Shown: in pieces, positions 20,619 to 43,354 of the stretch
Position numbering within the stretch: position 1 is the first letter of the stretch
How the letters are laid out: each line of letters opens with the position of its first letter
NCBI GenBank assembly: GCA_965207065.1
Contig: OZ242260.1
Location: 1,504,001-1,568,000 of the forward strand
Length of the DNA: 64,000 bases
Origin: a bacterium
GTDB lineage: Bacteria > UBA8248
Direction: 5' to 3'
Notes under the pieces: generated by a model
The model's database searches: none
Seen by the model: the letters and a program-made list of their open reading frames with translations, nothing else
What the model was told of the DNA's origin: nothing
Translations under genes and position numbers: made by a program

Positions 20619-22777
20619 ATGAACATCGCAGAACTCAAACAAATTAGCCGGACTGGACCGGTTCTCGACATAACTAATTACACAGATCATTTCATAAGGT
20701 CACTTGTTAAGTTGATCCGAAGCACGAAACGTCACGGCGTTATGTTTGAGACGGAATCGTCGACTTCCGCAGCCGCATGGCTACTGTGTATAGCGGATGC
20801 CAATGCTTTCGGAACCCTCAGCACCGACGCTCAGTTGGAATGTACATTTCCCGAGATGGCTCCAAACCAACTCCTAGGATTTCGGGGGCAGAAGGCCAAA
20901 TATGAGAGTATTGTGACTAGACTGCATCGATTATTGCGCCAGGCTAAGCCCTGGAGAGGAGGATGCCATGACCTGAAACCTCTCGTAGCGACCCAGAGGG
21001 TTCGACTCCCGCCCGGCAAAGGCGAAGCCGGCCAGCCGGAAGCGAGTCTTGCATGGCGTGCGGCAACGCCCGTCGTGAAGCGTAGACAGCAGGTGATGAA
21101 GCGGCGGGGTAAGCCTCGAAATCGGTCAATCGACGACGCCTTCATTGTTAATCGTGTGGGGGCAGCACCGGGAGCGCCGCCAATGGCGAGGCGCAACGGG
21201 TCGTCCGGGGTCGTGGGCCGGCGCAAAGTCACGGGACGGGTCGCCAGGGAACCTGGGAGATCCTGCTCTTGCCCGTGGGCAAGAACGCTGGAAAGGGGAC
21301 GGCCAGCGTGAACAATCCAGACCCCGGCCCGTCGCCGGACCTGCACGGCGGCGGGAGCGCCCCAGGGCGGACACGAACCCGGCAGGCGCCCGCGGAACCG
21401 GCTGGCCAAAACAATAAGCCGAAGGACATGCGAGGGTAGGAAGTCGTAGCGCCCTGATAGTACCGCTGAAGGCGGGGAACCGTGGCCATCGGGACCCGCT
21501 GGAGGGAAGCGGGGCGTCATCTGTACAGAACCACTGATGGGAAACGATGGAGGAAACTCTGAGTTCCACCAACACGTACACGAAACAGCAGTGGATAGCC
21601 GAACAGGCGAGGAATGCCTCGACCTGCGGACCAAGGGTGACAACCCCTTGAGCGAACCTGTCAGGTGAGGAACCGAGTGCGTCAATCGCGCACGCTCGGG
21701 TCTGCGGGGGGAGGGGCGCAGCAATGCCCCCTCCTACCCGGCCCTCAAGAAAAGCGTGTCGAGGCAGACAAAGCTTTCAGTTGGTTTCGTGCTGCAATTT
21801 CAGCTTGGCACAATACAAACTTCCGCTACCTTAATGACATGTTCGACAATGGTGGGGTTGAGCATGAGTCCGCCATGGGTGTCGCGCAACATTACCAACT
21901 CCCCACTTTTTTAGTGGACTGGACATGGAATCCTTTCGTGGCCTTGGCGTTCGCCATGTCCGATCTAAGGGATGGTGAAGAGGGCGTGGTCTTTCTTCGA
22001 GATTTTGGCGACGGAACTAACCCAACATCCGACTATAACGTTCTTTTGCCGCCGTCGTTTGCCAAGAGAGCTTGGCGTCAAAGGGCGTTCTTTTCCTGGC
22101 ATCCAGTTGCTCCTGAGGATTGGGACAATCCGGTCGTGCAGAGAATTGCAGGGGATATTCCGCGGCATAATGCAATGCCCAACAATTATTATCACATCAA
22201 ATTTCGTGCGACTGAGAGTGACATAAAATGGGCGAAACAGAGTTATGCTGGATTGATGAAGGAGGATCTGCCCGGCTTGGGTTGCTTGGCGAAATGGTGT
22301 TTAGAAGCCGCACGAAAGGGCGCGAATGGGCCTTTACATCCCAATGTTCTCTCGTTGGATGATTTCCAGAAATGGTGTAATCGTTGCAACTTGAATTTAC
22401 CTGAGTTTGTGGTGACGAATCGAGAAGTGGAAGTAACAGAGAACTTTGCTCTCATGATGGATTATATAGATGAAATGAGCGTTAGGCGTAATCCAAGTAA
22501 TGGCACAATCGGTTACTTCATTCCGAGTGTGTTAACGGCCTGTGTGGGAATGCCATGGAACAGTTGTATGAAGTATCCCGCCCGCGGACTTAAGAACCTG
22601 AATGATCCAAGAGCAGATGTTTTCTTTGACGATGATGGGCAACCCTGTATGGATCACTGGCATAAAAAGCTGAGCTATATGAAGTCGTTGGTTGACATAA
22701 GACGTATACAGAACGACGATTTTTTTCGATCAATGTTTGTAGAACGCCCGCGGGGAAAGAGGCAACAAATCGGTTAA
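20619..22777 (+). CDS. FRG-domain protein split by a group II intron (exons 20619-20933 and 21743-22777; 449 aa spliced)
   Basis: FRGQ in exon 1; AQHYQLPTFLVDWTWNPFVALAFA and QRAFF in exon 2; exons join in frame. Confidence 0.8.
20934..21742 (+). mobile_element. ORF-less group II intron (809 nt)
   Basis: TTGCG start; DV GAGGAACCGAGTGCG..CGCACGCTCGGGTCTG; DVI ending CTACCCGGC; EBS1 TAATCG (21149-21154) pairs with CGATTA (20928-20933); only a short RT stub remains. Confidence 0.85.
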
Positions 22778-26328: not shown

Positions 26329-27346
26329 CGGCGCGCATCTGCTGTGCGCGCGGTTGCGCCGCTTGAACGTCGACGCCTCGGCCGGCAGCGAGGAGGAGTT
26401 GGCGCGGATCGTGGCGCAGGTCCGCAGGCGCTGGCCGCGTACGCGGGTCGTGGTCCGCGGCGACTCGGGGTTTTGCCGCGAACCGTTGATGCGCTGGTGC
26501 GAGGAGAACGGCGTCGACTACGTGTTCGGCATGGCGCGTAACGCGCGGTTGGTCCGGGCGATTGGCCGGGACCTCTACCGGGCCGGGGTCGTGTGCCACC
26601 GCAGCAGTGAACCGGCGCGCCGGTATCGCGACTTCCGCTATCGCACACGCAAGAGCTGGTCCCGAACCCGGCGGGTGGTGGGCAAGGCGCAGCACCTGCC
26701 CAGGGGGGCGAACCCCCGGTTCGTAGTCACCAGCCTCCGCCCCCGGCGGGCCGACGCCAGGCGCCTCTACGAAGAACTCTACTGCGCCCGGGGAGAGATG
26801 GAGAACCGCATCAAGGAACAGCAACTCGGCCTGTTCGCCGACCGCACCAGCAGCGCCACCCTGAAGGCCAATCAGTTGCGACTCTACTTCGCCTCCTTCG
26901 CCTACGTCCTGATGCACGGATTGCGACGCCTGGGGCTGGCCGGCACGACATACGCCAGGGCCCAGTGCGCCACGCTCCGGCTGAAGCTGCTCAAGCTCGG
27001 CGCCCGCGTGAGGGTCACCGTGCGCAAGGTCCGGCTGTCAATCTCCGGAGCCTACCCCCATGCGGCGACCTTCGAAAAGGTGCTGAACAACCTGCGTACG
27101 CACCCGCCCTGGCCGGCGGCGGGGGAGAGAAGCTGAACGTACAATCGCAGCGACGCTAATCCTTGCAGGGGGAAACCTGCGCCTGCGCGTCGGCCGACAC
27201 TCCGAAAAAGCATTCGTAAGGGCCGGGGAAACGCCTCTCGGGCACCGTGCGTCATCGTATCATGCCAGCGAAGAAGGCTGCCTCCCGAATAAAGCCGTCC
27301 ACAACTTCAAATCAGGCCGATCCGCAGCCTCGGTGAAATATCCGGG
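26329..27346 (+). mobile_element. IS1380-family remnant: C-terminal transposase and right end
   Basis: HLLCARLR, VRGDSGFCRE, NPRFVVTSL, YCARGEMENRIKEQQL; end GGTGAAATATCCGGG. Confidence 0.85.
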
Positions 27347-27360
27347 CTAATCATGTCGGC

Positions 27361-27835
27361 ATGAAGATTTGCACAGAAGATATTCAGGCGGAAGTTTCGT
27401 TAGTCGAGAGGTCGGATGTCCCACGGCCTCATCCCCCCGGGTTGCCCGCAACCGCAGAGGCGTACTGGCGTTCGCTGTACGAGCGCGAGCGTGCGCGCGC
27501 GGAGGCGGCGGAGGCGCGCTGCGAGGGGTTGCGGCTCAAGGAGGTGGCTTCGCGCGCGCGGGCGGGTTCGCTGAAGTGGCATCTCGACAACAGCCGGAGG
27601 AAGCTTGCCGCGCGCGTCAAGAAGTTGAAGGAAGTCCGCCGCGCCGCGAAGCAGGACGTCCTGGCGCTCGAGGCGGAAGTGGCTCGACAGGAGAAGCTTC
27701 TCCGCAAAGCCGATGTCGAACCGGGGGAGCGCAGCCCGCTCGAGTCGCTGCGCAAGGAGATTGAGCGGTGGAAGGAGGCGCACGCCCGGCTGAAGAACCG
27801 GCTGGCCTGGGAGAAGCGGGAGACGCTCAGGCGAA
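27361..27835 (+). pseudogene. coiled-coil fragment, possibly a transposase N-terminus
   Basis: YWRSLYERERARAEAAEARCE heptad-rich stretch that breaks off into unrelated sequence. Confidence 0.3.
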
Positions 27836-28216
27836 CGTTGAAGTCGTCCGAACCCGTCAAGTCACCGACCGAGACCGCCGTCCCGTCCCGAGCGACGCAG
27901 CGCGCGCCCGCGCAATCGAACGTCTCCCCGACGAGCGTCGCGCCCCCGCCTTCAAGCAAATCGCGGGCATGGGTACTGGTGAGGAGCAGCGCGTCGGCGC
28001 GCCCGATGTGGGACGACTGGATCTTCGTCACAGAACCGCCGATCCGTCGTCTCGACGGAGTTGTCTGATGGTCTGCACCGGCGAGAAGCCAACCTGTCAT
28101 AAAAAAGTGGCGGCCATGGACATGAAGCCATACAATAGAAGGCAGATATCATAGAGGTATGGGGAAAAAGATTACCGGAAGCTGCACGAGTCGGCATCGC
28201 GAGAAGGAATCAAATC

Positions 28217-30556
28217 ATGCGGGAAAGCGCACAGAACATGACATCCAAGTCGAAGTCCGGTTTTTTCGATCTGGTAGTGGGTCGATACTTCTGGACGATA
28301 GCCGTCACATTCCTGGTGACCGCGGTTCTCGCCGCGGGAGTGCAGCACCTGATTACCGTCAATGTAGGCATCCGAAATCACTTCGATGAAGATGATCCGC
28401 ATTTGATCAAACTCGACGATTTCGAAAAGACCTACGCAGTGTCGGACAGCGTGCTCGTCATTGTCGCCCCGCCGAACGACACCGTTTTCACGCGCAAAGC
28501 ACTCGATGCGATTGAGCAACTGACGGAGGTGTTGTGGCAAACGCCTTATTCTGTCCGTGTCGATTCGATAACCAATTACCTGCACACCGAGGGAATCGAG
28601 GACACCCTGATTGTCGAGCAGCTGGTCGACGATGCGGCTTCGCTGGACGAGGTCAAACTCGCCCGCATTCGAGAGATTGCGCTCACCACACAGGAAACGG
28701 CCGGCCGTTTCGTCTCTCGCGATGGTCGTGTGGCCGGGCTGATCGTGAGCCTGGCAATTCCCGATGAGAAACGGAAACAGCGCAAAATCGAAGTGGTCGA
28801 CGGTCTCTACGGTCTCGTCAACAAACAGCGCGCGGCCAACCCCGACATCGAATATCACATCTATGGTGAACTGTTGTTGAATCGGGCGGTTCGCGAGGCG
28901 CTGAATGAAGATATGTCCTTTTTGGCGCCAATCGCGTTTGCGATGATGGTTCTGGTGGCCATTCTATTGCTGCGTTCGGTTTGGAGCGTTTGTGGAATTT
29001 TTGCGATGATAATTGCGGTGATGGCATCGAGTTTCGGTTTAACCGGCTGGTTCGGATTGAAATTCTATGCGGAAAGCGGCGCCGCGGTATTCGTTCTGAT
29101 GGCGATTGCCATCGCACACTCTGTCCACCTGATCGAAGGAATGACCGATGGAATGCTTCGTGGAATAGAACGTAAAGCCGCTGTTGTTCATTCCCTGCAA
29201 ATCAATGCCCATCCGATATTCCTCACTTCGCTCACCACCATGGTCGGTTTTCTGAGCCTGAATTTCTCGGAAATGCCCCCGTTTCGAGTGATGGGAAATA
29301 TCGTTGCGTTCGGCGCCATGTGCGCATTCGTTTACGCGGTCACGCTTTTGCCCGCATTGTTGGCGATGATGCCCATGCGGGCGCCCGCCGAAAAGAGAAA
29401 CGGAACGAAAACATTCAAGCGTTTGGGAGATTTCGTCGTTTCCAAAAGCACCTTGTTGCTTTGGGCTTTCGTCATACTCGTTCTGGTGAGCGCATATGGC
29501 GTCTCGAGAATTAAACTGAATGACAACAACAACGCCAAGCTGCTTAATGAAAGCTACGAGTTGCGCCGATCGGGGGATTTCATAAACGAGAACTTTTCCG
29601 GGCTGGATTCCTTTGAATATTCCCTGATCTCCGGGCGTGCAGGGGGAATCACCGACATTGAGTACCTGCATCGGGTGGATTCGTTCGCCAATTGGCTTCG
29701 CGAACAGCCTGAAGTTTCTCACGTCACCTCGATTGCCGATATCATGAAGCGGATTAATCAGAATCTGCACAATGACGCAAAAGGCTCCTATGCCCTGCCG
29801 GCAAACTCCGACCTTGCGGCGCAATACCTGCTTTTATACGAGTTCTCTCTACCGGTCGGCCGCGACATAAACAATCTCATCAACTTTGAGCGTTCGGCGA
29901 CCCGGATGACCGTCGTGATCGGGGGAATGTCGGTCAAAGAGCAAATCGAGCTGGACAATCGCGCTTCTGCCTGGCTGGGAAAAAATGCGCCGCAAATGCG
30001 AACCGGAGCGACCGGCGTCACCATTGTCGGCGCTTACTCGGTGATGAGAAACATCGTGAACATGTTACTCGGCACCTTCATCGCAATCTCGATCGTCTCG
30101 CTGCTGTTGATTTTTGCATTCAAAAGCCTTCGTTTGGGGCTTCTGAGCTTAATACCTAATTTCGTTCCGGCAATCATGTCCCTGGGGGCTTGGGGTTACG
30201 CCGTGGGAACCGTGAATATTGCGGCGTCAATCGTTACCGCGATAGCGTTTGCCATCGTTGTGGACGATACCATCCATCTCCTGTCCAAATACCTAAAATC
30301 ACGCGCAGAGGGCAAATCACCTTCCGAAGCTATCGCGCCGACTTTCGAACTCGTTGGAAAACCACTACTAAGCACAACCTTGATTTTTGCGGTGGCGTTT
30401 TTCGTCTTTGGCGCATCGGGGCTAGTGACCAATCAGACGCTCGGGTTGCTGGTCGGAATGACGGTCATCATTGCGCTCGTTGCGGACCTCTTTTTACTAC
30501 CGCCGCTTCTGCTGGCGCTCGACAGGACGAAACACGGGCAAGCGCTCGGCGACTAG
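28217..30556 (+). CDS. MMPL/RND-family lipid transporter (779 aa)
   Basis: Two TM bundles; PIFLTSLTTMVGFLSL, AIVVDDTIHLL, ADLFLLPPLL. Confidence 0.9.
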   Translation: MRESAQNMTSKSKSGFFDLVVGRYFWTIAVTFLVTAVLAAGVQHLITVNVGIRNHFDEDDPHLIKLDDFEKTYAVSDSVLVIVAPPNDTVFTRKALDAIEQLTEVLWQTPYSVRVDSITNYLHTEGIEDTLIVEQLVDDAASLDEVKLARIREIALTTQETAGRFVSRDGRVAGLIVSLAIPDEKRKQRKIEVVDGLYGLVNKQRAANPDIEYHIYGELLLNRAVREALNEDMSFLAPIAFAMMVLVAILLLRSVWSVCGIFAMIIAVMASSFGLTGWFGLKFYAESGAAVFVLMAIAIAHSVHLIEGMTDGMLRGIERKAAVVHSLQINAHPIFLTSLTTMVGFLSLNFSEMPPFRVMGNIVAFGAMCAFVYAVTLLPALLAMMPMRAPAEKRNGTKTFKRLGDFVVSKSTLLLWAFVILVLVSAYGVSRIKLNDNNNAKLLNESYELRRSGDFINENFSGLDSFEYSLISGRAGGITDIEYLHRVDSFANWLREQPEVSHVTSIADIMKRINQNLHNDAKGSYALPANSDLAAQYLLLYEFSLPVGRDINNLINFERSATRMTVVIGGMSVKEQIELDNRASAWLGKNAPQMRTGATGVTIVGAYSVMRNIVNMLLGTFIAISIVSLLLIFAFKSLRLGLLSLIPNFVPAIMSLGAWGYAVGTVNIAASIVTAIAFAIVVDDTIHLLSKYLKSRAEGKSPSEAIAPTFELVGKPLLSTTLIFAVAFFVFGASGLVTNQTLGLLVGMTVIIALVADLFLLPPLLLALDRTKHGQALGD

Positions 30557-30735
30557 CTTCCGGGACGTTTCGTGATGGCGTAGGTCGAAGGCATGAGGCC
30601 GTCGAAGCGCCGATCAGGCCGGGGTAGTTCCGCCGGTGTCTCGCGAGCAAACTTCCGCCCGTCCGCGTCCACGTTTGCGGCATGCCTTCATTCTCGATAG
30701 CGTCCGTATTGCCGGTCAGGCCTGCAGGAGCACCT

Positions 30736-32754
30736 TCAAGCCGAAATTTCGCGCAACTGGCTTGCGATGCGCAGCCGAAGTTTCTTCGTAACCGACAATG
30801 CCGGGAACGGGTTGATTTTCAGCTTATAGTCTTTAGGCGGCAGCGCGAACTCGAAATGATGCGCTATAACCAACACGGTAACCGTCAACTGCAAATGCAT
30901 CCATGCCCATCCTGCGCACGAGTGGGTATCCAAGCCGTTCGGAGCGTATCCAGGACCTTGATGCTCATTGCGCGGCGGCAGGTAACGGTCGATATCGAAT
31001 TCGTAGGGGTCTGCGAAGCAATCACTCATGTAGTGCGCCGCGGTTTGCACAATGTACAACCGTTCCCTGAGCGGCAGTGAATAATTTTCCACGACGCAAG
31101 AACTTGCGACATCGCGAAGATGTATGCAGATAATCGGATACATTCGTAAACATTCCATGAGAAAACGTCTGGTAACGTCATACTTGTCCGGCGAAAACTC
31201 GTCTTTATCCGGGTCGCCGCCATCGAAAAGCGCGTTTGCCTCTTCACGAATTCTCGCCGTAATTTCCGGCTGTCTGGCCATTTCATAAAGCACGAATCCC
31301 AACATGTCCCCTAGATAAATACTTTGAAACACAGGCGTTACCGCCAGCATGAACAGCAGGTTTTGCTCCGGGATAAACTGCGGGTCGCTGTTGTGCAGAG
31401 AAATCAGTTCGTCCGCCAGATCCTCGGCAACACCTGCGCGGTGAATGGGTATATGGTTCTGCTCGATGCGCCGCAGGAGTTTCTCGTAAAGCTGAAAGCG
31501 ATACTTCATGCCGGGAGTGCGCGTCAGGAATTTCGGCAGAAAATCCGCAACGTAGCAAAGGATTGCTCTTTCATTCCATTTGACCAGATCTTCAAATACA
31601 TCTTGCGAATCCGTACTAATAAGAACCTGAGACATTTGAAAATTGGTCATCAACCGGGTATCTCGCTGTACTTCTAGTCTCGAGCCCGCCTGCCACTCTT
31701 GACTTATCATGAATTGGCGGCTCAGTCGGAACATATCATCCAGCCTCTCATAGAAACTGGCTTTCGAGTAAATTCTCCCCATCAGCTTGCGCAATCGAAA
31801 ATGATCGGCTCCGTCCATCGACGGCAGTAAATTGTTTGCGCCGCAAACCATCTCCATCTTGCGAAAAAAATTGCCGGAAGTTAAAAACCTTCGGGAATTT
31901 CGACGCACCCAATGATTGATATCAGGTCCAGCCAAAAATGTTCGCGGCTCTTGAAACGGCGCACAGATTTGAAAGACCGGACCATATCGGTCGGCCAGAT
32001 TTCCGAACAGCGCCGGCAGGTTGCCGTCCCACAAATGCCGATTTGCAAGCAAGCTCTTTAGGGGAATCTTCGGAATTGGTTTTGTGAGGGGTGAGTGTTG
32101 CAATGCAGGCGTAATGGCGACTTGCTTGACGGCAGTGGAAATGACCCGGTTGAGCAGTTCCGTTTTACAAACCAGGTCAATTCGCTTTTTCTCTTCCTCA
32201 TCCAGCTCGAAAATAAATTTAATGATATCGCACGCATCCAAAAGACCGATTATCAGGGAATCCCTCGGGTCCGGAATGATATCCGTGAAAATCACCTCCT
32301 CGATTCTCGATTTGATGTACCTTCCGACGCTCTCGCTTCGGGGATAACGTTCCAATTCCGCATGCCAGGCGCAGTGGTTCGTTGTGTAAAACTCACCATC
32401 ATGGCGCGTCAGAATTTCGGACTTGAGCAAGTGCTTCAGCGTAGCATCGATGATGTCTTCCGAATGAACTGCAAGCCGCTCAATCCAGTATCGCGGTTCT
32501 TCCAGATTGGGATGGGATGCGATCTCTTCCAGGCATAAATCCAGTGCCAGGTCGCCTGTTTTGGTTGAATCCAGGAGAAAAAGCGATTCTTCATCTGTAT
32601 CAACGCGTGATTTCAAGGAGAGATCGGCCAGAACAGCGCCGATGGTGGCGCAGTTCAACGTCCAGCCCTCCACTTGGTGGAAATAACCGTTCTGCTCGTT
32701 GAGAATCGTCAGGATGAATTCTTGCGGGATATTCAACGATTGCTTCGTTATCAT
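30736..32754 (-). CDS. GPP34 (GOLPH3-like) domain-cytochrome P450 fusion (672 aa)
   Basis: N-terminus EFILTIL..GAVLADLSL..TGDLALD..WIERL; P450 motifs YGPVF, ECLRMYP, FDIDRY, heme Cys in PNGLDTHSCAG. Confidence 0.82.
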   Translation of the reverse strand: MITKQSLNIPQEFILTILNEQNGYFHQVEGWTLNCATIGAVLADLSLKSRVDTDEESLFLLDSTKTGDLALDLCLEEIASHPNLEEPRYWIERLAVHSEDIIDATLKHLLKSEILTRHDGEFYTTNHCAWHAELERYPRSESVGRYIKSRIEEVIFTDIIPDPRDSLIIGLLDACDIIKFIFELDEEEKKRIDLVCKTELLNRVISTAVKQVAITPALQHSPLTKPIPKIPLKSLLANRHLWDGNLPALFGNLADRYGPVFQICAPFQEPRTFLAGPDINHWVRRNSRRFLTSGNFFRKMEMVCGANNLLPSMDGADHFRLRKLMGRIYSKASFYERLDDMFRLSRQFMISQEWQAGSRLEVQRDTRLMTNFQMSQVLISTDSQDVFEDLVKWNERAILCYVADFLPKFLTRTPGMKYRFQLYEKLLRRIEQNHIPIHRAGVAEDLADELISLHNSDPQFIPEQNLLFMLAVTPVFQSIYLGDMLGFVLYEMARQPEITARIREEANALFDGGDPDKDEFSPDKYDVTRRFLMECLRMYPIICIHLRDVASSCVVENYSLPLRERLYIVQTAAHYMSDCFADPYEFDIDRYLPPRNEHQGPGYAPNGLDTHSCAGWAWMHLQLTVTVLVIAHHFEFALPPKDYKLKINPFPALSVTKKLRLRIASQLREISA

Positions 32755-32834
32755 GTTACACTCCATTCCTCGTGATTTGATTCTTTCTCGTGATGCCGAT
32801 TCCTGCGGCTTCCGGTCCCCTTTTTTCCATCCCT

Positions 32835-35800
32835 CTACGAGATCTTCTTTGCCGTTCCGGTTCCGCCGTCCGGCTTCATGTCCACAGCCGCCACTCTTCC
32901 AGCCATGACGCGTTGACTTCTCGCCGGTAATATCATGCTCTTTCGTCGCTTCCGGCGACGCTGCTCGTAGAGACCAAGCGCGTGCAGGGGGAAATACTGG
33001 CGGTAGAGCACGTAATCCAGGAGCGCCGTCCGAAAAAAAACGCCGGGCATGTCCTGCTTGGGCCAAGTCCCGTCTGCTTCCTGCGTATTAAGCAGGAAGC
33101 CAGCGCCCCGGGAAATCGCGGCCCAGTCTGTTTCGTCCGCCTTGAGGAGTGCTATCAGCGCCCACGCGGTCTGTATGACCTGGCTTTCCTGATGCGGGAC
33201 GTAGCAACCGCTTAGGCAGCCGCTGTGGTGTTCGCCCCATCCCCCGTCTGGCTGCTGGCGCTCCAGCAGCCAGCGGCAAGACGCGCGCAGCGCCGGATCG
33301 CTTGGACCGGCCCGGTCCGAAACAAGGCCCCAGATGCCGAAAAGGGTGCCGTAGATGTACTGGACCCCCCATACGCCGCGCCAACTGCCGTCAGCCATCT
33401 GGTTCCGTCGCAACCACAAGGCGCCCCGGGCGATGGAGTCGGCAACCACTGACCTGTCGCCAATTTCAGGAAATCGATCCCGGCAGACAGCCAGCGCCGC
33501 GATACAAGACGCGGTACATTCGACAAAAGAATGCTCGGTCATCGATTCGCCGAACATCTCTGCAGGATTCAAGCGCTCCAGATCAATTGCCGAGCGCCTG
33601 GCCTCATAACTGCCGAAGCCGCCGTCGGGGTTCTGGCTTCGCAACATAAAGCCAATCGCTTCGCTGAGCACGGACGAGTCCGTGTCGTCTCCGTGGGCGG
33701 CGACGAGTCCAAGCACCGCCTGCGCCGTGCAGTCACTCACCGGCCAGCCATGCCACCCACCGGCGAAGCACCAGCCGCCTTTGGGGTCAGCGCGGTAGGC
33801 TTCACGAAACCGTTCAAAGCTGATCTTGATCTGTTCGCCGAGCAGAAAATCGGCGCCGCGCCGGAGCGCATCCCGAACACGGTCCGTCTCAGGCATGGTA
33901 GCCAGAGCCTGCAGCGCGAACCCGGTATCCCACGAAGCGCTTCTTGCTCCGGTGACCCGCAAGCCGTCGTCTTCGTCTTCCCATATCCAGGAATCCATTT
34001 TCGATAGCGCCCTTCGGCAATCGGTATCGTCCGGATCGTGCAGCCACAGCGCCAGAATGTTGAGAATGCCGCTGACTGGAGAGATGCTCGTATGGCTGGT
34101 GGTCTGCAGTTCCCATCTGATCTGCCCGAGAATTGCATCCATGCACCGTGTGCGCAGGTGTTTGCTGTGGAACCGCTCGACCAGCCGTGCAAATCTATAT
34201 CCGAGCCTGAGCCAGACGGACGGCCTTGCAAAAAGATCGGCATCCCGAAGCCGGTTCCTAGCGGCGAGAAAATCGGCCCTGGCAAAACCTTGCGGATAAA
34301 GCTCTTCCCGCAACGCAGCGATAACTGGTGTGACGGGCGCCTGGTACCGGCGGGCATAAATCGACGCCATCGCCATATAGATGAGCCGTGTATGGCAGTA
34401 CCAGTTGGAGGGATGCAGCGGTATCTTCCGCGGCAGGCTCCACAATTCCGGCAGAACAGCGTTCACGCCGTTCCAATCATAAAGATTAAGGAGCGCCAGC
34501 CAGAATTTTCCCCAGCTCGGAATGCCGAGAATCCCCTCGGCCTGAATGAACCGCCGGGCCGGCGCGATCAGGGGGTCATCCGGCTCTACACCGAGCAGCC
34601 GCGCCGCGACATAAACGAGGGCGGTGACGAACAGATGGGGCGACGAATGCTCGTGCAGGCCCCATGAACCGTCTTGGAGACGGGTCCTCTCAAACGAGTG
34701 CAGCACCCGGCGCCGCTTTCCCGGATCGAGCGGCTGGCCGATGATGTGGTGGAGCAGTACGTATTGCGCCGTGAGCATGGGACACCAGACCATCTCGCCT
34801 TCCCAGTCGCCGTCCTCTCTCTGCAGTTGCACGAGGCATTGGGCGGCGCTTTCCAGCGCCGGACCGGCATCGGGCGAATCGACCTCTCCGGCGCGGGCGG
34901 GCCGCTCCGATTCGGTTTTCGAAGGGATGGTATAGGGGAATGCCCGTCGTAGGTGCTCTCGCGCTTTCGCGCTTTCCTCCCTTCCTTCCCTGGCCGCCTC
35001 CCTCAACTGGCGGATGCCGAGCAGCAACCACCAAAGGCGAGCAGCCAACGCGCGAAAGTTCACCAATATCCGACGCCATAGAAACCTGCGGATGGAGAAG
35101 GTTGTCTCCCGGCTCATTGCCCGCGCGACAGTTTCGCAAAAGGAGAAAACCGTCATTGGCATGGACAACTCTTGGCAGGCAAGTATCCGCATGGTCCGGT
35201 CCCGATACCCCGAATTCGCTCGCCAGCCCTGGTAAACGGCCTTTCTGAGCATAACCGATTCGGTGCGGTAATCGGTCAACACCTCATAAAGCCCCATGGC
35301 AAGGAACTCGGGAATACGGGTCGCCTGGAACCGCTTTGCGGTGAATTGCTGGAAGTCCTCGCTTTCGGAGAGCGCCAGCGCATCGCCGAAGCCGAGAGTC
35401 ATGCCGACTGCCGTCATGGGATGATAGTGTCCGGCCGCATCGCCGATAAGCACCCGGTGCGGGTTCCCGTACGTGACACGCGGTCTCAACTGGTTGGCGG
35501 CGGCATAGAATCGCCTGACGTGCAGCGCTTCGACGAAGGCCGGCCCGAGATTTCCTGGAAGCAGCCTGCCATAGGATTCAGACAAGAAACTTATCCGGTC
35601 CTTGGAATTCCAACAATCCAATGGGACATCCAGGTTGACCCGGACGGAGCCGTTCGCAAGTCCGTAAATGAAAATTGGACCCGGCCCACCCAGAACCAGA
35701 TGGCCGTATCCTTCAAACAGCAGGTCGGCGTCGTGTAACGTCACCCCGAGCATCCGCGAACAGAGCATCGGGTCCATGGAATATCCCAAGGATCTGCGCA

Positions 35801-36275
35801 CGATCGAAGCGCGGCCGTCGGCGCCGATAATTCGGTCGACATTTATGGCGCATTCCAAGCCATTTCTCGAGAAGGTAATCCGTTCGTCTTCAACGACATT
35901 GACCCGCGCGTGGGAAATGAAATCGACATTGGCCTCGTTCTCAATGACCTCGCGGAGGCTTGAAACGAGCAGCGCGTGGTCGCATACCAGACCCCGTGAA
36001 CCGTCTGGATAAGGAAGCAGGATCGGGTCGGAGTCGTCGTCGGGCAGCACCACGAAACCGACGCCCGACTTGCTGCCGGACAGCGTGTCGACATCAATCC
36101 CGATGTCACGCAACAACTTCACTCCCGGCGGATGCAACCATTCGCCTGCAAGGCGTTTAGACGCTTTCGGATTCGCTTCGAGCAGGGCCACCTTAACGCC
36201 CTTGCGCGCAAGGACAATTGCGCATACGCTTCCCACCGGTCCCGCGCCGATAATGGCGGCATCATACTTCGGCAC
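32835..36275 (-). CDS. squalene epoxidase-oxidosqualene cyclase fusion (1146 aa from GTG)
   Basis: SE: IIGAGPVG, AGEWLHPPG, IGDAAGHYHPMTAVGMT. OSC: IPSWGKFWL, YCHTRLIY, GWPVSDCTAQ, LNPAEMFG, VECT, QW repeats. AGGAG RBS. Confidence 0.92.
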   Translation of the reverse strand: MPKYDAAIIGAGPVGSVCAIVLARKGVKVALLEANPKASKRLAGEWLHPPGVKLLRDIGIDVDTLSGSKSGVGFVVLPDDDSDPILLPYPDGSRGLVCDHALLVSSLREVIENEANVDFISHARVNVVEDERITFSRNGLECAINVDRIIGADGRASIVRRSLGYSMDPMLCSRMLGVTLHDADLLFEGYGHLVLGGPGPIFIYGLANGSVRVNLDVPLDCWNSKDRISFLSESYGRLLPGNLGPAFVEALHVRRFYAAANQLRPRVTYGNPHRVLIGDAAGHYHPMTAVGMTLGFGDALALSESEDFQQFTAKRFQATRIPEFLAMGLYEVLTDYRTESVMLRKAVYQGWRANSGYRDRTMRILACQELSMPMTVFSFCETVARAMSRETTFSIRRFLWRRILVNFRALAARLWWLLLGIRQLREAAREGREESAKAREHLRRAFPYTIPSKTESERPARAGEVDSPDAGPALESAAQCLVQLQREDGDWEGEMVWCPMLTAQYVLLHHIIGQPLDPGKRRRVLHSFERTRLQDGSWGLHEHSSPHLFVTALVYVAARLLGVEPDDPLIAPARRFIQAEGILGIPSWGKFWLALLNLYDWNGVNAVLPELWSLPRKIPLHPSNWYCHTRLIYMAMASIYARRYQAPVTPVIAALREELYPQGFARADFLAARNRLRDADLFARPSVWLRLGYRFARLVERFHSKHLRTRCMDAILGQIRWELQTTSHTSISPVSGILNILALWLHDPDDTDCRRALSKMDSWIWEDEDDGLRVTGARSASWDTGFALQALATMPETDRVRDALRRGADFLLGEQIKISFERFREAYRADPKGGWCFAGGWHGWPVSDCTAQAVLGLVAAHGDDTDSSVLSEAIGFMLRSQNPDGGFGSYEARRSAIDLERLNPAEMFGESMTEHSFVECTASCIAALAVCRDRFPEIGDRSVVADSIARGALWLRRNQMADGSWRGVWGVQYIYGTLFGIWGLVSDRAGPSDPALRASCRWLLERQQPDGGWGEHHSGCLSGCYVPHQESQVIQTAWALIALLKADETDWAAISRGAGFLLNTQEADGTWPKQDMPGVFFRTALLDYVLYRQYFPLHALGLYEQRRRKRRKSMILPARSQRVMAGRVAAVDMKPDGGTGTAKKIS

Positions 36276-36279
36276 CGAG

Positions 36280-37359
36280 TCAGCGCTCCTCAAAGGGCGC
36301 TGAGTACAGCGCGGCGGCGGTTGTGAAGGGCAGGTCGCCGTCCTGGATCGAGAGCAGGAACGTTTCCGGACCCTCGATCTCGTCATCATGCTCGGTGGGA
36401 ATAGAGAAGCGGTACCGGGGCCACCCCGCCGGGATAGTCAAATTGTAGGGGCCGCCCGTGTAGTCCCCTTGTTCCGACGCGGTCTGGTCCGTGTTCACCA
36501 ATGTAACAGTTGTATTCGTGAACCGAGGCCACGAGAACATCAGTTTCCATCTCGAGCACCTCGCCTTTGGCCACCGAGTTGGCGTTGTCCAGATACTCAA
36601 CACGCTTGTCAGGTCGCTGTGCGTCACGGTCTGCTGGCCGGCGTGCCCACGGGCAGGCCGCAGGCGACGTTGGTGTTGCTTGCCCTCGCTCCCGAAAACG
36701 ACGTTCAGCGTCCCTTCGTAGGCGTTGCCTTCTTCTAGGTTCGCCACTGGGGTGAGCATGATGAGCGCCTACTGCACCACGTTCGTGGCGAGGCCGGTGA
36801 AGGTCAGAGTCAGGTCACTTCCCGTACCGGACACCGTAACGCTGGTTCCGGTGGTGGCGTAGGAGTAGTCCGAGGTCACGTGATTGGTGTTGCGGACGGT
36901 GGTCGAGTTAGTGCCTATGCCGATGGAGAAGTGCGCCACGTCGTCCGTCAGCAGCCGCTGGCCGAGCTTGACCCTGACCTGCGCCGTGTCGGTCGCGTCG
37001 CCTTCGGTCATCCACGTATCCATCGCCTCGAAGGAGACCGTGACCTGCGCGGTGGCCTCGTCGGCAAAACCCGCCGACAGCAGGACAGGCAACAGCAAGG
37101 ACAGGAAGAGACGGTGCGGGGAAAAGGTGGTCCGTTTCCAGGGCGTGCGTCCCGGGGCGCCGATTCTTTTGCGGAGTCCGGAAGCCGCGCCGCGCGGACC
37201 GGAGCGGCGGGAAAACTCAGGCGGTGAGGCTGGAAGGCAAAGGCAGCGCCGCCATGCGGTAACGCTCATGGCCGACGTTCGGTTCGGTTCGGTTCGGTTC
37301 GGTTCGGTTCGGTTCGGTTCGGTTCGGTTCGGTTCGGTTCGGTTCGGTTCGGAGAACAT
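36280..37359 (-). pseudogene. secreted Calx-beta protein remnant with 5' simple-sequence repeat
   Basis: Signal-like LFLSLLLPVLLSAGFADEATAQ; in-frame TAG at 36769; GDY..LTIPAG..FSIPTEHDDEIEGPETFLLSI. Confidence 0.65.
37277..37351. repeat. (GTTCG)15 pentanucleotide tandem repeat
   Basis: Perfect tandem units encoding (EPNRT)5 just after the ATG at 37359. Confidence 0.95.
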
Positions 37360-37855
37360 GGTGAAGAACGCTCTCGTCCGGCTTGTCAAGCCCTGATATG
37401 AAGCTTTTCTGCTATTGAAGAAGGCCCGAAAAACCAAGGGGAATGTTGCAAGGCGGCGCGCATCTTCGGTCTCCTTAAAGAATGGGAATAATTCAGCAAA
37501 GTTAACAAAGATTTTAGAGATTAACTTCATCATTGAGTTCATCGAATCTTGATCCTGAATGGTCAAATTAAGCGTTTATGTTTGCAAATGCTTCTTTCAT
37601 ATCTTGAGCCGTTATCCGGTTCCTTGCATAGATTCATACTATTCATTTTTGTATTGGCGTCAGCCGGAACGGATCGGGCCGAATGCCGCTTAACCTATGA
37701 GTTTTGGAGTGGGCTCCTGCGTATTCACTCGAGAATGAGGGCTTGTATTTCGAAAGCGATCCCATTATCGGGTCAACCCGCAAACCATGTTGCATTGAAT
37801 ACCTTGGCTATGTCAACGAAATTTGTCAAGAAAAATTGATTTGAAATATTTGGCA

Positions 37856-38421
37856 TCATGAGCGCCCAGAAGCGATGGCGCCGGCTACGCGGCTTCCGTC
37901 AATGACGCGGACGCTGCTCCCCAAGTCCTCATGCCTGCGGATGCGCCCGGCGTCTGCGGCACGCACCAGAAGCAACTGGCGGAACGCGATGTGCCCCGAC
38001 GTAAAGACGACGGCCTCCTCCCAGCCGCATCGAGAGTTCGCGAATCGAGGATCGTGATGCCCCCGCCCACCATGTCGAACTGCGATCCGGCCGCGCGAAG
38101 CCAGATGTTCTTCCAAGACGCGATGCCGCGGCGGGAAAAAGAGAGGCCCGCGCCCTTCATCGCTTCGAGGGCGCTCAACAGATTCGACTCGTAGCCTAGA
38201 TGGACGTGGGAGCCGGCGGAATTTGGAGCGGGGTCGGCGCTGTAGCTCACCGGTTTGAAGAAGGCATAGTATCCGAATATCAGAGGACGTCCATCACTCG
38301 TGCAAGCCACCGAAGGTGTGGCGAACGCGCCGACAGCGAGAACGAGACAAACCATCGAGGCGCAGGCGGCGAGTGATGTCCGTCCGGGCAGGCGGGAAAA
38401 CAGCGCAAGCATGCCTTTCAT
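37856..38421 (-). pseudogene. ABC-type amino-acid substrate-binding protein, truncated
   Basis: Signal peptide; FKPVSY, GYESNLL, FDMVGGGITILDSR, then frameshift and loss. Confidence 0.6.
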
Positions 38422-38734
38422 CCTTTCGGACGTAATGGAGTGGCGGCGAATTCGTGATGGAATCCTGCGCCTGAGAACGGCATTCTCGTATCATCCGCGC
38501 AATCGCCCAAGCGTCGAACCCGTACCATCTTTCGAATTCACCGGTTTCTCGACGTCATATCCGTCCCTCACATCCATTTCTTCACGTCGCTTGGTTTTGA
38601 GAGCGAATGAGAGTTTGGCCTTTTTCCAGAATGGTTTCGAATACTCTTCGAACCCAATTGTAACCCCGCTGTGATAAAATGCGGCGTACGCGGACGACGG
38701 ATGGATCCCACAACAGCAGAAGGAAACGCAAGCC

Positions 38735-38931
38735 ATGAAGCTGGGCGTATTGACGGGGACGGCGACTGCCCCGGCCTGAACGCGGTCATCCGCGCGGCGA
38801 CGGCATCGAACTTCCACCGGGGAAGCCATACGCTGGGTATCCGCCCGGGCTGGCACGGCCTGGTGGACGGCGATTTCACCGAGATTACGGGCCCGGTGAT
38901 CTCCGGTATCAGTGACAATACCATCGCTTAA
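38735..38931 (+). pseudogene. pfkA: 6-phosphofructokinase N-terminal remnant
   Basis: MKLGVLTG / GDCPGLNAVIRA..GIRPGWHGLV across a frameshift. Confidence 0.7.
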
Positions 38932-39102
38932 CCGAAAAACTATAAGGGGCCGACGAGGCAGCTGCAAAGTTGCTTTTCTTCACGATTCGTAACGCAGAGG
39001 TCCTTAGGGGCGCCGCGTTGACTGGAGCGCTGCGAAGGGGCAGTTTGCCATTGTGTTTGGGGAATACCCAGATGTTCGGACAGCCCCTTCAGGAGGTTTC
39101 GA

Positions 39103-40860
39103 ATGATGTCCGTTTTTACCTCCAGGATTGTTGGACTCGTCGCCATGATCGCAATCATGTCCGGCTGCAGCAGCGCAACCAGACAAGGCCACGGCGTCCC
39201 GCCTGCAGGAGAATTGTTCCACGGGCAGAAAGCATTGATGGAAAAAGTCGAAGCCGGAGGTCCCCTCGAGGGTGTTCTGACGATTATCGATACGGAGTGC
39301 CGGGTTGCGGAATCCCACTGCGCCGTGGTCACTGAAACCGCCGCGGCGTTCGGAACACCTCGGGGAAACATACTCCACACGGAAAAAGGGCGCTTCGGCG
39401 ATGCCGACTATGAGTCCGTGCTTACTCACCCTGAAACGCTCGAAGAACTCATTGCATCCGGCGGATTGGAGGCCATAATCGAGGAGTTGAAACTTCTTGG
39501 GACGGCTCCGGGGACTTTCCTGACCCGGGCAACGTGGGAGGCGCACAGAGAACGGACGAAAGTCGTGGTCATGCCGTTCGGTCCGGTTTTCAACCGGCCG
39601 GGAGACGGTTCCCTGATCGCAAGTCGCAACATGCTGTTTGTCGCGTCAATCGGAAACGTCATCACCGATGAGAGCCAGCCGTTCGACAAGGATAGCTTCG
39701 TGCGCAACTGGTACACGCCCGGCTGGTGCAGCGATCGGGAATCGGTGGAGCGGCGCACGGGCAGCGGCAACTTCTATTGCGATCTCCTGAACGACGCACA
39801 GCTCGCCAGCATCTTCAGGAACCTGAAGGAGGCGCAGGGAAAGGCTCTGTATGCGACCTGGGGAGACATCAAGGACGGAGAAGTCACGCCCTATCCTTTT
39901 GCGGTGAGCTGCGGGGAAGCGAAGAACGATTGCTTCACGGTCATCCTGCCGCCTGAGCATCGGGGCCGGAAGATCGAGAGTTTCGATGATATGGCGCAAT
40001 ACGCCGTCGGCACCTCGTTTGCGTCGCCGGCTCTCGGCAGCTATCTCTTTTATCTTTCCCAACTCTGGGACGATGCGGGAGAGGTGCGCAGGATTCTCAA
40101 CGAATGCGCCATCGACGTTGGAGAACCCGGAATCGACAGGGAATTCGGCCGGGGCGTTGCGAGCGCCGACTGTCCGCAGGTGGCGAAGAGGGAAAGGACC
40201 ACCGCGCGGGCGAGCGTCTCACTTGACATGCGCTCGCCGCTGATGAATGCGCGGGATGCGGTGGTGTCTGCTGCCGCGGCGAGGGGCTACGAGGGGTCCA
40301 GGTCTTCGCGGCGGGAATCCGAATCCGGCGCGAGGGGGCCGCTTTCGTTCCACACCGCCCGGCCGCGGGGCGGGGCGAGAGCGCCGCTTCGGTTTTCGTT
40401 CGCCTCCTCGGCGCGGCAGCGTGTCGTTCCGGAGATTTACCTGGCGGAGGGCATTCTGGGCGCCGGGGTGACGAAACGCTTCACCACCGGCGAGAGCATC
40501 TCCTTATCGTTCGGGCATGGGTACGACACCCTTGCGGCGTCTTCCTTCCTGGCCGGCCCCGGACGCCGGGAATCGTTCATGGAGGTCGGCGTGCGTAAGC
40601 CGCTACTTCTAGGCCGAAACACGCTCGTCGAACTGTCGGGTTCATACGGGCGGGTGAACGATGAAATGCGACTCCAGGTATTCAGGGCGGGACTGAGGTC
40701 GGTGCATCGGGAAGGCAACCATAGCGTTGCATTCGACCTCGCGTATGCGCGGGCGGCCGGTTCTCTCGGCATCCCCGGCTATAGAGACGTGGGCAGGAAC
40801 AAGGTCCCCTTCATGAAGGAGTCGTTTGACACCGCCGTTTCCTGGCGCCTGGAATTTTGA
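39103..40860 (+). CDS. lipoprotein with divergent subtilisin (S8)-like domain and beta-barrel-like C-terminus
   Basis: AGGAGG RBS; IMSGC lipobox; TIIDT, SHCAVV, ASIGN, GTSFASP, DVGEPGIDREFGRG; terminal WRLEF. Confidence 0.7.
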   Translation: MMSVFTSRIVGLVAMIAIMSGCSSATRQGHGVPPAGELFHGQKALMEKVEAGGPLEGVLTIIDTECRVAESHCAVVTETAAAFGTPRGNILHTEKGRFGDADYESVLTHPETLEELIASGGLEAIIEELKLLGTAPGTFLTRATWEAHRERTKVVVMPFGPVFNRPGDGSLIASRNMLFVASIGNVITDESQPFDKDSFVRNWYTPGWCSDRESVERRTGSGNFYCDLLNDAQLASIFRNLKEAQGKALYATWGDIKDGEVTPYPFAVSCGEAKNDCFTVILPPEHRGRKIESFDDMAQYAVGTSFASPALGSYLFYLSQLWDDAGEVRRILNECAIDVGEPGIDREFGRGVASADCPQVAKRERTTARASVSLDMRSPLMNARDAVVSAAAARGYEGSRSSRRESESGARGPLSFHTARPRGGARAPLRFSFASSARQRVVPEIYLAEGILGAGVTKRFTTGESISLSFGHGYDTLAASSFLAGPGRRESFMEVGVRKPLLLGRNTLVELSGSYGRVNDEMRLQVFRAGLRSVHREGNHSVAFDLAYARAAGSLGIPGYRDVGRNKVPFMKESFDTAVSWRLEF

Positions 40861-41428: not shown

Positions 41429-41938
41429 GGCCTGCTCGATACCAATTCAGTATCTCCGCAGGGGAAAGGCCATTCGCTGCTACCGCCGGTCACTCGATCC
41501 ATCCATATGAGGGGCAAGCGGAGCGCAGGCATTCGCATCATGGGCGACCCGCCACCTGAAAGATATCAGGATGGTATTACATTTTCCGGCGCGACGGGAG
41601 CACTCAGGAATACGAATTTTCACGGCATACTGCACGCAGTCGTATCACTGTAACACCAGCATCAGCGATGCGTCGGGTGTACTGAAAGAAACGCCGAAGG
41701 GCGGCTAGCGCAGGGATTCTTAGGAACGCGAGTCGAGGGGAATCATGCCGGTGAGAATGGCGAGCGGGAGCCGTCGCGGCGATTGAGCGCGAGGAGCAAT
41801 GCGGGGAGTTGTTCCTGCGGCAAGACCAGTGGAGTCTTCATCGTTGCCGGCGCAAGCGGCGCGAGCGTTGGTCGACGAGACGCAAAGGGCCGCGCCGCCG
41901 CCGGGCGGGGTGGCGACGCGACCCGAGGTGTTTTCGCG

Positions 41939-42898
41939 TCAGGCTGCAACGCGCTGGACGGGGATACCGAGGGTTTTAGCTTTGTCGACGAGGTTGTCGG
42001 TGATGCCCGAACCCGGGAACGCGATCACGCCCTTGGGCAGGAGTGCGAGGAGTTCGTCGTTCCTGCGGAAGGGAGCGGCCCTGCCGTGGGCGTCCCAATC
42101 CGGTTTGCAGACGACCTGGTGGACGCCGTTCCGCTCGGCCCATCCCGCCGCTATCTTCTCCGCACCGGGGCCGCCGCCGTGGACGAGAACGACGTCGGCG
42201 TACTTGGCCTTGACCTTGTCGAGGTGGCCGATGATTTTGCCCGCATCGCTCGCCTCCTTGCCTCCCGCGACGGCGACGAGGGTTCCCTGGGGCAAGTGGG
42301 CCGTGTTCTCGCGGTCCTTTCTGGCTCGCTGGAAGTCGCGCGCCTCGATGACAGCGGAGGTGAGCTTGCCGGTCTGGCTGACGTGGGAACCTCGCCTCGG
42401 CCGCCATACCTCGCCGGTCTCGATGCGGTAGGCTTCTGCTGCCGTGTCCCTGAGTCCCTCGAAGGCGTCCCTGCGCTCCGTGAGGTTGTTGGCCCGGTCG
42501 GTCTTGAGTTCGAGTTCACGCGACCTGATCTCGGAGCCGTCCTGCTCACGCTGTAGTTCGCGGACCCCGGGGATGAGCCTGTCGGCGGCGCGGTCGAGGC
42601 GTTGTGTCTGTGCGTCCAGGGTGTTGACGAAGCCCCAGAGGAGGTTTCTTCGCTCATCCGCGAGCTGCGTTCCATCGGGCACGGCTTCTGCGAGTGCGCT
42701 GAAGGCCTTGATGACGGCGGCGGTTGCTTCGCCCTCGTCCCACACGGGGCGGTTGTCGAACTCATCAGGCCCGGGCGTGGCGCCGAACAGGGCGGCCTGC
42801 TCGCAGACCATGGCGGTGAAGGATTCGTTCTGCGCTTCGTGTTCCGTGTGCTCGTGCATGTTCATCTCCTTGTGGTCATGAGTCGCGGTGGCAGTCAT
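41939..42898 (-). CDS. DUF2493 (SLOG-fold) domain protein
   Basis: VAVAGG, LVHGGGPGAEKIAAGWA, PDWDAHGRAAPFRRN, AFPGSGITDNL. Confidence 0.8.
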   Translation of the reverse strand: MTATATHDHKEMNMHEHTEHEAQNESFTAMVCEQAALFGATPGPDEFDNRPVWDEGEATAAVIKAFSALAEAVPDGTQLADERRNLLWGFVNTLDAQTQRLDRAADRLIPGVRELQREQDGSEIRSRELELKTDRANNLTERRDAFEGLRDTAAEAYRIETGEVWRPRRGSHVSQTGKLTSAVIEARDFQRARKDRENTAHLPQGTLVAVAGGKEASDAGKIIGHLDKVKAKYADVVLVHGGGPGAEKIAAGWAERNGVHQVVCKPDWDAHGRAAPFRRNDELLALLPKGVIAFPGSGITDNLVDKAKTLGIPVQRVAA

Positions 42899-42947
42899 CG
42901 TTCACTCCTTTCAGTGATTGGGTTTTCAGCCGTTGGTTCGGTTGTCC

Positions 42948-43319: not shown

Positions 43320-43354
43320 GCCTTTCTCCTTTCCAGAGAGTTAACGGATATGCT

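Follow-up and report, generated by a model that had tools for sequence, protein, structure and literature searches.

What lipid is made, altered and moved by three triterpenoid genes that lie side by side in a 64,000-nt stretch of bacterial DNA (assembly GCA_965207065.1, contig OZ242260.1, positions 1,504,001 to 1,568,000; this whole stretch is called the window below)? An earlier note, made from the sequence alone, had named them as a fusion of squalene epoxidase and oxidosqualene cyclase (SE-OSC), a GPP34-P450 fusion and an MMPL exporter, and had proposed a non-canonical scaffold that is oxidised and exported, potentially to a host. On balance, we consider it probable that the genes belong to a cassette of ~10 kb, recently exchanged between related symbiont genomes, which encodes a shortened sterol pathway as in sponge-associated bacteria. 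The parts are individually known, and none is rare. New are the arrangement of the fusion with GPP34_L (the published name for proteins with GPP34 and a cytochrome P450) and a pump with a sterol-sensing domain (SSD), the genome-wide loss of demethylation genes, and the recent exchange of the block. The three genes are the following.

32835..36275, minus strand: squalene epoxidase-oxidosqualene cyclase fusion, 1146 aa, with Pfam and NCBIfam matches; the open frame extends to 36389.

30736..32766, minus strand: GPP34-P450 fusion, 676 aa, N-terminal GPP34 followed by an atypical P450 (Pfam GPP34 78.9 bits, p450 76.1 bits).

28217..30556, plus strand: MMPL/HAE3-type RND transporter, 779 aa, which carries a sterol-sensing domain and whose gene converges on that of the GPP34-P450.

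By translation of the open reading frames (ORFs), all three genes are intact, open and full length, and the identities given in the earlier note are borne out by Pfam and NCBIfam domain matches. The start at 36275 gives the SE-OSC the same 1146-aa form as the protein-database entry; its residue numbers below refer to the longer frame of 1184 aa. The genome holding the window is called G000, and its nearest relatives are G001 and G002, the genomes of loci L002 and L003. L-numbers denote loci with SE-OSC relatives, which were taken from a scan of one genome per prokaryote species. Papers with PMC numbers are cited from the parts of their text that were available.

The fusion carries the Pfam domains SE, FAD_binding_3, SQHop_cyclase_N and SQHop_cyclase_C. 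Its epoxidase half scores 73.1 against PF08491 (cut-off 20.1) and 69 against PF01494, shows GAGPVG in the translation and matches human squalene monooxygenase (6c6n) at 1.7e-25. The cyclase half scores as an oxidosqualene cyclase, with matches of 9e-134 to human lanosterol synthase and 6e-51 to squalene-hopene cyclase. TIGR01787 gives 504 (cut-off 322.7), and the hopene cyclase model TIGR01507 gives 265, under its 431. The score against the NCBIfam 2,3-oxidosqualene cyclase TIGR03463 is 720.8 bits versus a cut-off of 851; as this match covers the full model (3-633 of 634), the protein belongs to a divergent clade and is not a fragment. It is the only cyclase found in G000.

A protein search with the SE-OSC gave 561 clusters; among the 120 matches listed, all are full-length and 65-100% identical, with epoxidase and cyclase Pfam domains. 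Relatives occur in 318 species genomes, and the best 80 loci, to which the locus counts below refer, are 62-96% identical to the window SE-OSC. These 80 are labelled Alphaproteobacteria, Gammaproteobacteria, Nitrospirales, Binatia, Thermodesulfobacteriota, Opitutales and Acidobacteriota; sponge-bin names are frequent among them, and a Myxococcota label was not found. The statement of the earlier note that such fusions are rare and reported mainly from myxobacteria is therefore not supported, and fused enzymes have been published for sponge symbionts (PMC7074536; PMC10070321). The latter paper mentions “Fused SMO/OSC homologs,” and the former (2020) describes MsbE, a bifunctional epoxidase/cyclase encoded in the msb cluster of a gammaproteobacterial symbiont of the sponge Melophlus sarasinorum. 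The available parts of PMC8237579 and PMC12324236 hold nothing relevant on fused cyclases or sponge symbionts.

MsbE, compared here by its published description and not by sequence, resembles the window protein in joining an N-terminal epoxidase to a C-terminal cyclase and in the Val at the product-determining position, which was used in PMC7074536 to call MsbE a lanosterol synthase. The activity of both proteins is predicted. The fused family found here spans metagenome-assembled genomes (MAGs) of sponge symbionts from many phyla. MsbE differs in that it adjoins msbA-D (NAD(P) oxidoreductase, Rieske oxygenase, sterol reductase and CYP51 homologue); all four are missing from the window locus and likewise from its genome as far as searched.

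The usual layout of the related loci is SdmB-SdmA-ERG24-CYP51-SE/OSC(-SMT), where SMT is a sterol methyltransferase. Beside the fusion, the best 80 loci have CYP51 in 67 cases, ERG24 in 66, SdmB in 66, SdmA in 65 and SMT in 56. The window holds no squalene synthase, CYP51 or reductase, as the earlier note had observed, and the ORFs upstream of the fusion (36280-39546) have no CYP51 or ERG24 domains; hence, we rejected the idea that they are remnants of these genes. In the rest of G000, too, CYP51, SdmA, SdmB (searched by tblastn) and cluster-type ERG24 were not found, which sets the pathway apart from the canonical bacterial sterol cluster. Squalene genes, for which the earlier note had proposed a genome search, are present elsewhere in G000 as a NUDIX-HpnC-HpnD fusion and an HpnE-like oxidase. 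The fusion is a 719-aa frame at G000:C1:4145207-4147366 (L085 5207-7366, minus strand) with NUDIX and two SQS_PSY domains, one HpnC-like and one HpnD-like, and the oxidase gene lies directly downstream.

The same reduction recurs in other loci. In L002-5, L007, L009, L027, L047 and L051, no SdmB, SdmA, ERG24 or CYP51 lies within 10 kb, GPP34-P450 stands next to the fusion, and an MMPL homologue is in view; L015 keeps only SdmB and SdmA of those four genes. CYP51 was searched in 51 whole genomes, and cluster-type ERG24 and SdmA in a subset of 15. CYP51 was found in 42/51 genomes and is missing in G000 and in the genomes of L002, L003, L004/5, L007, L009, L015, L027 and L047. These nine are the genomes whose loci have GPP34-P450 and the pump at the fusion and no CYP51 there; the genome of L051 has CYP51, ERG24 and SdmA ~100 kb away. 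Cluster-type ERG24 is absent from all nine, and SdmA is absent from all but G013. Several of the CYP51-less records are at chromosome level; the others may be incomplete. In L015 (OZ244041.1), which lies on an alphaproteobacterial chromosome, the gene order is SdmB, SdmA, GPP34-P450, MMPL, SE-OSC. The GPP34-P450/MMPL pair is located there exactly at the usual ERG24-CYP51 position, and searches of this genome found neither of these two genes.

Steroid gene clusters of the form ERG24-CYP51-LSS have been described in 115/537 Ircinia MAGs from 10 phyla (PMC9531527). They share with the loci analyzed here the cyclase family, the kind of host bacteria and the spread across phyla, and their layout is seen in 67/80 of the related loci, extended by SdmB, SdmA and often SMT. 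The window locus differs, as it is among the few without CYP51 by the fusion and has GPP34-P450 and an RND pump instead.

What the cyclase makes is predicted from its motifs. DCTAQ, HGWPVSD and TGARSASWDT, from which the earlier note had derived its scaffold, are all present in the translation. The catalytic Asp motif and its partner Cys (human D455, C456 and C533) are kept, as WPVSDCTAQ corresponds to human WIVSDCTAE and FVECTAS to YVECTSA. We aligned the window protein with fusion ORFs from 78 of the 80 loci (79 sequences); L047 and L065 were left out because they have no ORF of at least 600 aa with DCTA. Throughout this alignment, VTGARSASWDTGFA or a near variant is common, GARS(A/x)SWDT is shared family-wide, and HGWPV(S/T)DCTAE occurs in 78/79 sequences. 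The seemingly odd motifs GARSASWDT and HGWPV are also found in loci with full sterol clusters. As the loci that share them mostly carry CYP51 and ERG24, the motifs belong to enzymes feeding an ordinary sterol pathway and do not support a non-canonical scaffold. HGWPVSD aligns with human CGWIVSD, with His at human position 449 and Val at 453. By the bacterial rule of PMC4919349, V453 leads to lanosterol and I453 to cycloartenol, and V453 went with lanosterol in the bacteria tested there; hence, lanosterol is predicted for the window enzyme. Position 449 (His) and position 381 (Ala, with a one-residue deletion) fit neither the canonical lanosterol nor the canonical cycloartenol synthase set. The product is probably no new scaffold and would be a lanosterol-type sterol, not demethylated, that is then oxidized and transported.

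DCTAQ is not a family trait and goes back to a private single substitution in 1/79 sequences.

33720..33722, minus strand: codon CAG for Gln890 (1184-aa frame numbering), which is Glu in 78/79 family members.

Gln890 lies four residues past the catalytic Asp of SDCTA, and the two nearest relatives have GAG versus CAG in the window. Contigs of four public runs cover the block, and one run has window-identical contigs. The Gln codon also occurs on an identical contig of public run X1, and the Glu form on other contigs in all four runs; the run with window-identical contigs, Gln codon included, may be the source sample of the window.

The evidence for a recent transfer comes from the DNA around the three genes.

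27871..37877, no strand assigned: conserved 10-kb block; the identity is 96.8% to L002 (G001), over 10,019 nt, and 92.7-93.4% to L003 (G002).

Outside the block, similarity drops to 80% or vanishes altogether. In the same genome pairs, the hpn region is 87% identical over 11.2 kb, and the main pieces of a second sterol-type locus of G000 (L084, described below) share 88-91% identity with G001. The synonymous divergence (dS) from G001 is 0.045-0.052 for the three block genes versus 0.34-0.63 for five hpn-region genes; for the second locus, it is 0.15-0.56. As the dS of the block is far below this background, the block is much younger than the genomes carrying it. In a phylogeny of the cyclases (FastTree, 78 rows, with L020 dropped as a truncated sequence), the SE-OSC is placed within a Rhodobacterales clade with full support, although G000 belongs to a small, separate phylum with 51 genomes in the set searched. 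Tree and dS together agree with a horizontally moving unit, as the earlier note had suggested. Within the genus, the fusion occurs in 5/23 genomes, and in two of those it is only 66% identical to that of the window. Base composition was rejected as a sign of transfer, since the block has 56.0% GC versus 59.5% (standard deviation 3.5%) for the genome and lies at the 14th percentile, which is not telling. Terminal repeats bounding the 10-kb block were not found; two copies of a leader, described below, are its only long repeats.

The block is still under purifying selection. The ratio of nonsynonymous to synonymous divergence (dN/dS) of the three genes is 0.22-0.33 against G001 and 0.15-0.26 against G002, with the highest value (0.33) for SE-OSC. 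The surroundings, which the earlier note had called pseudogenes, contain a partial DDE transposase and other mobile DNA; this part of its description was checked in part only.

26354-27136: DDE transposase, C-terminal 246/435 profile positions.

36280-36759: Calx-beta fragment, sub-threshold.

6508-6651 and 21003-21220: group II intron RNA domains (Rfam, D1-D4 models), which fit a window rich in mobile DNA.

Both flanks are mostly DNA that is multi-copy in G001 and G002. Positions 41650-47000 and 48400-53900 of the window have many copies (72-96% identity) in these two genomes, and the latter repeat overlaps a TonB-dependent receptor frame (48521-51070). At the block edge, a 275-nt piece (37904-38177) is 93% identical to L002 and has the opposite orientation relative to the block. 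Inside the block, an unannotated 265-aa frame upstream of the fusion contains ~19 GTTCG pentanucleotide units (37267-37362), and public-run contigs break at this run.

Such debris, together with Gln890, could mark a cassette whose cyclase is decaying and no longer works. The window SE-OSC departs from its family at 4/388 near-invariant columns, E890Q beside the catalytic Asp among them, versus 1 each in L002 and L003; its dN/dS is the highest of the three genes, and the flanks are full of broken, repeated mobile DNA. However, eleven family members depart at more conserved columns, all three frames are open and full length, and every dN/dS value is well under 1. Glu to Gln is moreover an isosteric exchange, which may or may not affect the cyclase. 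We regard decay as very unlikely.

The P450 was examined for its likely chemistry. In the long frame, PF05719 covers residues 113-299 and PF00067 residues 589-761; the gene starts 68 nt downstream of the SE-OSC gene on the same strand. Among the 120 clusters listed in a protein search, relatives are 48-94% identical, and nearly all are full-length with both Pfam domains; those with a name are called just “cytochrome P450.” The P450 hallmarks H615-x-C617-x-G619 and E538-x-x-R541 are invariant in 45/45 aligned sequences. The I-helix motif (A/G)Gx(D/E)T is missing, with QSIYLGD in place of AGxxT (consensus FMLAAAPxxQSIYLGD, in which Y484 and G486 are invariant). An AlphaFold2 model (predicted local distance difference test 87.6, predicted template-modelling (TM) score 0.83) shows a P450 fold; its target TM-scores are 0.79-0.83. 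An assignment to a P450 subfamily by fold search was rejected because P450 BM3, CYP184A1 and CYP51 score alike. Against solved structures, the GPP34 domain gave Vps74 as its one match (E 0.1), which is too weak for a check of the residues binding phosphatidylinositol 4-phosphate (PI4P).

As CYP51 is missing from the genome, the GPP34-P450 might have taken over its role as sterol 14-alpha-demethylase in the CYP51-less genomes, so that the pathway would be rewired and not shortened. By sequence, the P450 domain indeed matches CYP51s best in the PDB (7jj1, 6mi0 and 6mcw; 2e-14 to 4e-14), and the highest target TM-score among the fold matches listed (0.83) is that of the Methylococcus capsulatus CYP51, although the search does not separate CYP51 from P450 BM3. 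In the nine CYP51-less genomes, GPP34-P450 lies within ~4 kb of the fusion, and elsewhere it is CYP51 that directly adjoins it. In addition, a divergent ERG4/ERG24 protein, which stands alone in G000, is also kept in G001 and G024; however, G002, G003, G005, G007, G013 and G044 have no ERG4/24 match of any kind. The identity is only ~20% to PDB CYP51 and 21-24% to the CYP51 proteins of the symbionts themselves, and the B' helix signature is lost. In a HMMER alignment, the AGHHTS of the CYP51 I-helix falls on QSIYL, with Leu at the position of the Thr. Finally, 41 genomes hold both CYP51 and GPP34-P450. A takeover is hence quite unlikely in our view.

The nearest solved sequence relative, the M. 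capsulatus CYP51-ferredoxin (6mcw, 7jj1 and 7snm), also combines a bacterial P450 with a helper domain in one protein and acts on lanosterol-type sterols. It differs from the window P450 in its fused partner, a ferredoxin at the C-terminus versus GPP34 at the N-terminus, as well as in sequence (~20% identity), and its I-helix and B' signatures are not kept in the window protein.

For proteins of this architecture, a different role has been put forward. PMC11706023 describes 656 GPP34_L proteins, reported only from sponge symbionts and present in 50-96% of symbiont genomes in many phyla, and proposes that GPP34_L is secreted and, as an effector, binds PI4P of the host and stops phagosomes from maturing; neighbouring genes would then be uninformative on its role. 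The window protein agrees with these in its two-domain architecture and is of similar length. Its GPP34 domain is a true Pfam match. Titles of related-locus records name sponge bins and sponge-symbiont taxa, and in a run labelled sponge metagenome, 36/483 contigs match parts of the block with an identity of 99% or more. The gene differs from the proposal in its context: it probably forms an operon with a sterol cyclase gene and moves together with the gene of an SSD pump. The available main text of PMC11706023 does not contain the words sterol, squalene, MMPL or RND, so this context was not weighed there, although its supplement (flanking-gene figure S11) may already show such neighbours. Our literature searches found no paper combining GPP34 with sterol terms.

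The context was therefore quantified across genomes. A GPP34-P450 match across both domains was found in 50/50 fusion-holding genomes searched (L002-L053 minus L005 and L020). We kept 71 long matches, dropping 9 partial or P450-only rows and all GPP34-only rows, and accepted MMPL homologues at E <= 1e-60; because MAGs are fragmented, the resulting linkage figures are lower bounds. An MMPL homologue lies within 5 kb of 33/71 matches, and the SE-OSC within 20 kb of 30/71. For the 43 matches at least 42% identical to that of the window, the numbers are 28 (MMPL, 5 kb) and 23 (SE-OSC, 20 kb). Half of the genomes (25/50) have a copy within 20 kb of the fusion, where a rough estimate of chance expectation in ~4-Mb genomes gives <1% of copies that near. 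These figures bear on the conservation of the trio, which the earlier note had wanted checked. The linkage speaks against the effector role, as do the heme-thiolate and ExxR motifs, whose invariance points to an enzyme needing a reductant, and the protein sequence, in which no hydrophobic N-terminal signal is visible. We give the effector proposal a slim chance for this gene.

Pump and P450 are more closely tied to each other than to the cyclase. In 13 loci with all three genes, the pairwise identities of pump and P450 correlate with r = 0.93, and each with SE-OSC at 0.66-0.68; these values are descriptive and not a test, because kin are not independent. GPP34-P450 and pump share a history. 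They also share a leader.

28060..28225, plus strand: 5' leader (~160 nt) of the MMPL gene, with inverted repeats I1, I3 and I4 shared with 32768-32928 (82-89%).

32760..32935, minus strand: second leader copy, upstream of the GPP34-P450 gene, overlapping the unconserved 3' end of the SE-OSC frame.

By nhmmer, G000 has only these two copies; both also occur in L002 and L003, and L009 and L021 show weak matches upstream of the corresponding genes. A leader common to both genes suggests common regulation, as far as sequence can tell. A structured RNA in the leader was rejected, since the covariation term that RNAalifold reached with six copies was 0.03, with double-sided change in 1/25 pairs. 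Rfam had no match within the 10-kb block, and a promoter/terminator scan of 27800-33100 gave fewer sites than in shuffles.

This bond raises the possibility that the pair handles outside sterols, from the sponge or from neighbouring bacteria, and that its adjacency to the cyclase is secondary. A leader of its own and a history that differs from that of SE-OSC set the pair apart, and the pump carries a sterol-sensing domain. Moreover, 9 of the 14 genomes of the genus with GPP34-P450 are without SE-OSC, and the published frequency of GPP34_L among symbiont genomes (50-96%) exceeds that of steroid clusters (115/537 MAGs). Yet in the window, just 68 nt separate the cyclase gene from the P450 gene behind it on the same strand, half of the genomes keep a copy within 20 kb of the fusion, and in all nine CYP51-less genomes, the pair is located at the cyclase. 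We therefore hold this explanation to be unlikely.

The pump scores 120.4 against PF03176 (cut-off 20.5), 31.1 against PF12349 Sterol-sensing (22.3) and 23.6 against PF02460 Patched SSD (23), and it is 98% identical to the G001 copy, with a dN/dS of 0.22. Like HpnN and BstA, it belongs to the HAE3/MMPL branch of the RND superfamily, and its gene stands beside triterpenoid synthesis genes. Unlike them, it scores far below the family cut-offs (HpnN: TIGR03480 107 versus 752 and NF052374 39 versus 1100; BstA: NF045600 19.6 versus 1400). In the PDB, only distant matches were found (MmpL5/4 1e-9, HpnN 4e-5). A periplasmic or outer-membrane partner is not encoded in the 10-kb block; at the second locus, a LolA-like protein and a barrel protein adjoin the paralogous pump.

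The second sterol-type locus (L084, G000:C1:598001-618000) encodes an ankyrin protein, an FAD amine-oxidase-like protein, the LolA-like protein, a GPP34-P450 paralogue 40% identical to that of the window and a TPR protein, as well as an SSD/MMPL pump, an outer-membrane barrel, a KshA-like Rieske oxygenase and an SMT. Against G001, the dS of the Rieske, SMT and P450 genes of this locus is 0.15-0.21, below the hpn region. A further region (L087, G000:C1:763590-774999) holds three complete MMPL paralogues in tandem, which share 58-60% identity with the Nitrospira-type pump of L046; fragments of a fourth lie between them.

Taken together, the shortened pathway that we favour would run as follows. 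Squalene would be made elsewhere in the genome by the NUDIX-HpnC-HpnD fusion and HpnE. The MsbE-type SE-OSC would epoxidize and cyclize it, most likely to lanosterol. Without CYP51, a cluster-type C-14 reductase and the C-4 demethylase genes SdmA/SdmB, the product should stay a 4,4,14-trimethyl “protosterol.” The GPP34-P450, CYP51-related but atypical and probably held at the membrane by its GPP34 domain, may oxidize this protosterol, and the SSD-bearing MMPL/RND pump may move the lipid out of the inner membrane.

Several points weigh against this pathway. The cassette is known here from its genes, so that product, transcript and activity are all predicted, and the absence of genes from MAGs, which may be incomplete, is weaker evidence than their absence from closed genomes. 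Gln890 replaces an otherwise invariant Glu near the catalytic Asp and might weaken the cyclase. The I-helix is without the usual acid-alcohol pair, which leaves ordinary hydroxylation not assured. GPP34-P450 co-occurs with CYP51 in 41/50 other genomes; within the genus, 14/23 genomes have it and just 5/23 the fusion, and since it occurs there without SE-OSC, a cyclase of the same bacterium cannot be a requirement for the P450. As for the pump, it is no HpnN or BstA orthologue, and its direction of transport is presumed.

A bolder, minimal form of the pathway may be called make, oxidize, export. The bacterium would turn its own squalene into a lanosterol-type protosterol, GPP34_L would act on it with unusual chemistry to give an oxysterol-like signal or membrane lipid, and the SSD pump would send this towards the sponge; export to a host, which the earlier note had raised, is an inference. 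We offer this form tentatively and consider it doubtful as a whole.

One probable operon thus brings together two features published as hallmarks of sponge symbionts, GPP34-P450 and the bacterial steroid gene cluster, which the literature treats apart. With three genes and one substrate (squalene), the cassette is the smallest natural context for testing GPP34-P450 function. The low synonymous divergence of the block shows that lipid cassettes are still exchanged among symbionts. The genomes without CYP51, ERG24 and SdmA point to non-demethylated protosterols as the product of some symbionts, which bears on the debate on the bacterial input to sponge sterols and on sterane biomarkers (PMC10070321). 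If make, oxidize, export is true, GPP34-P450, a hallmark “symbiosis protein,” would be an enzyme acting on sterols rather than an effector aimed at phagosomes. In that case, sponge symbionts would also be a source of non-demethylated, possibly side-chain-alkylated steroids, which would affect the reading of fossil protosteroids and of “sponge” steranes.

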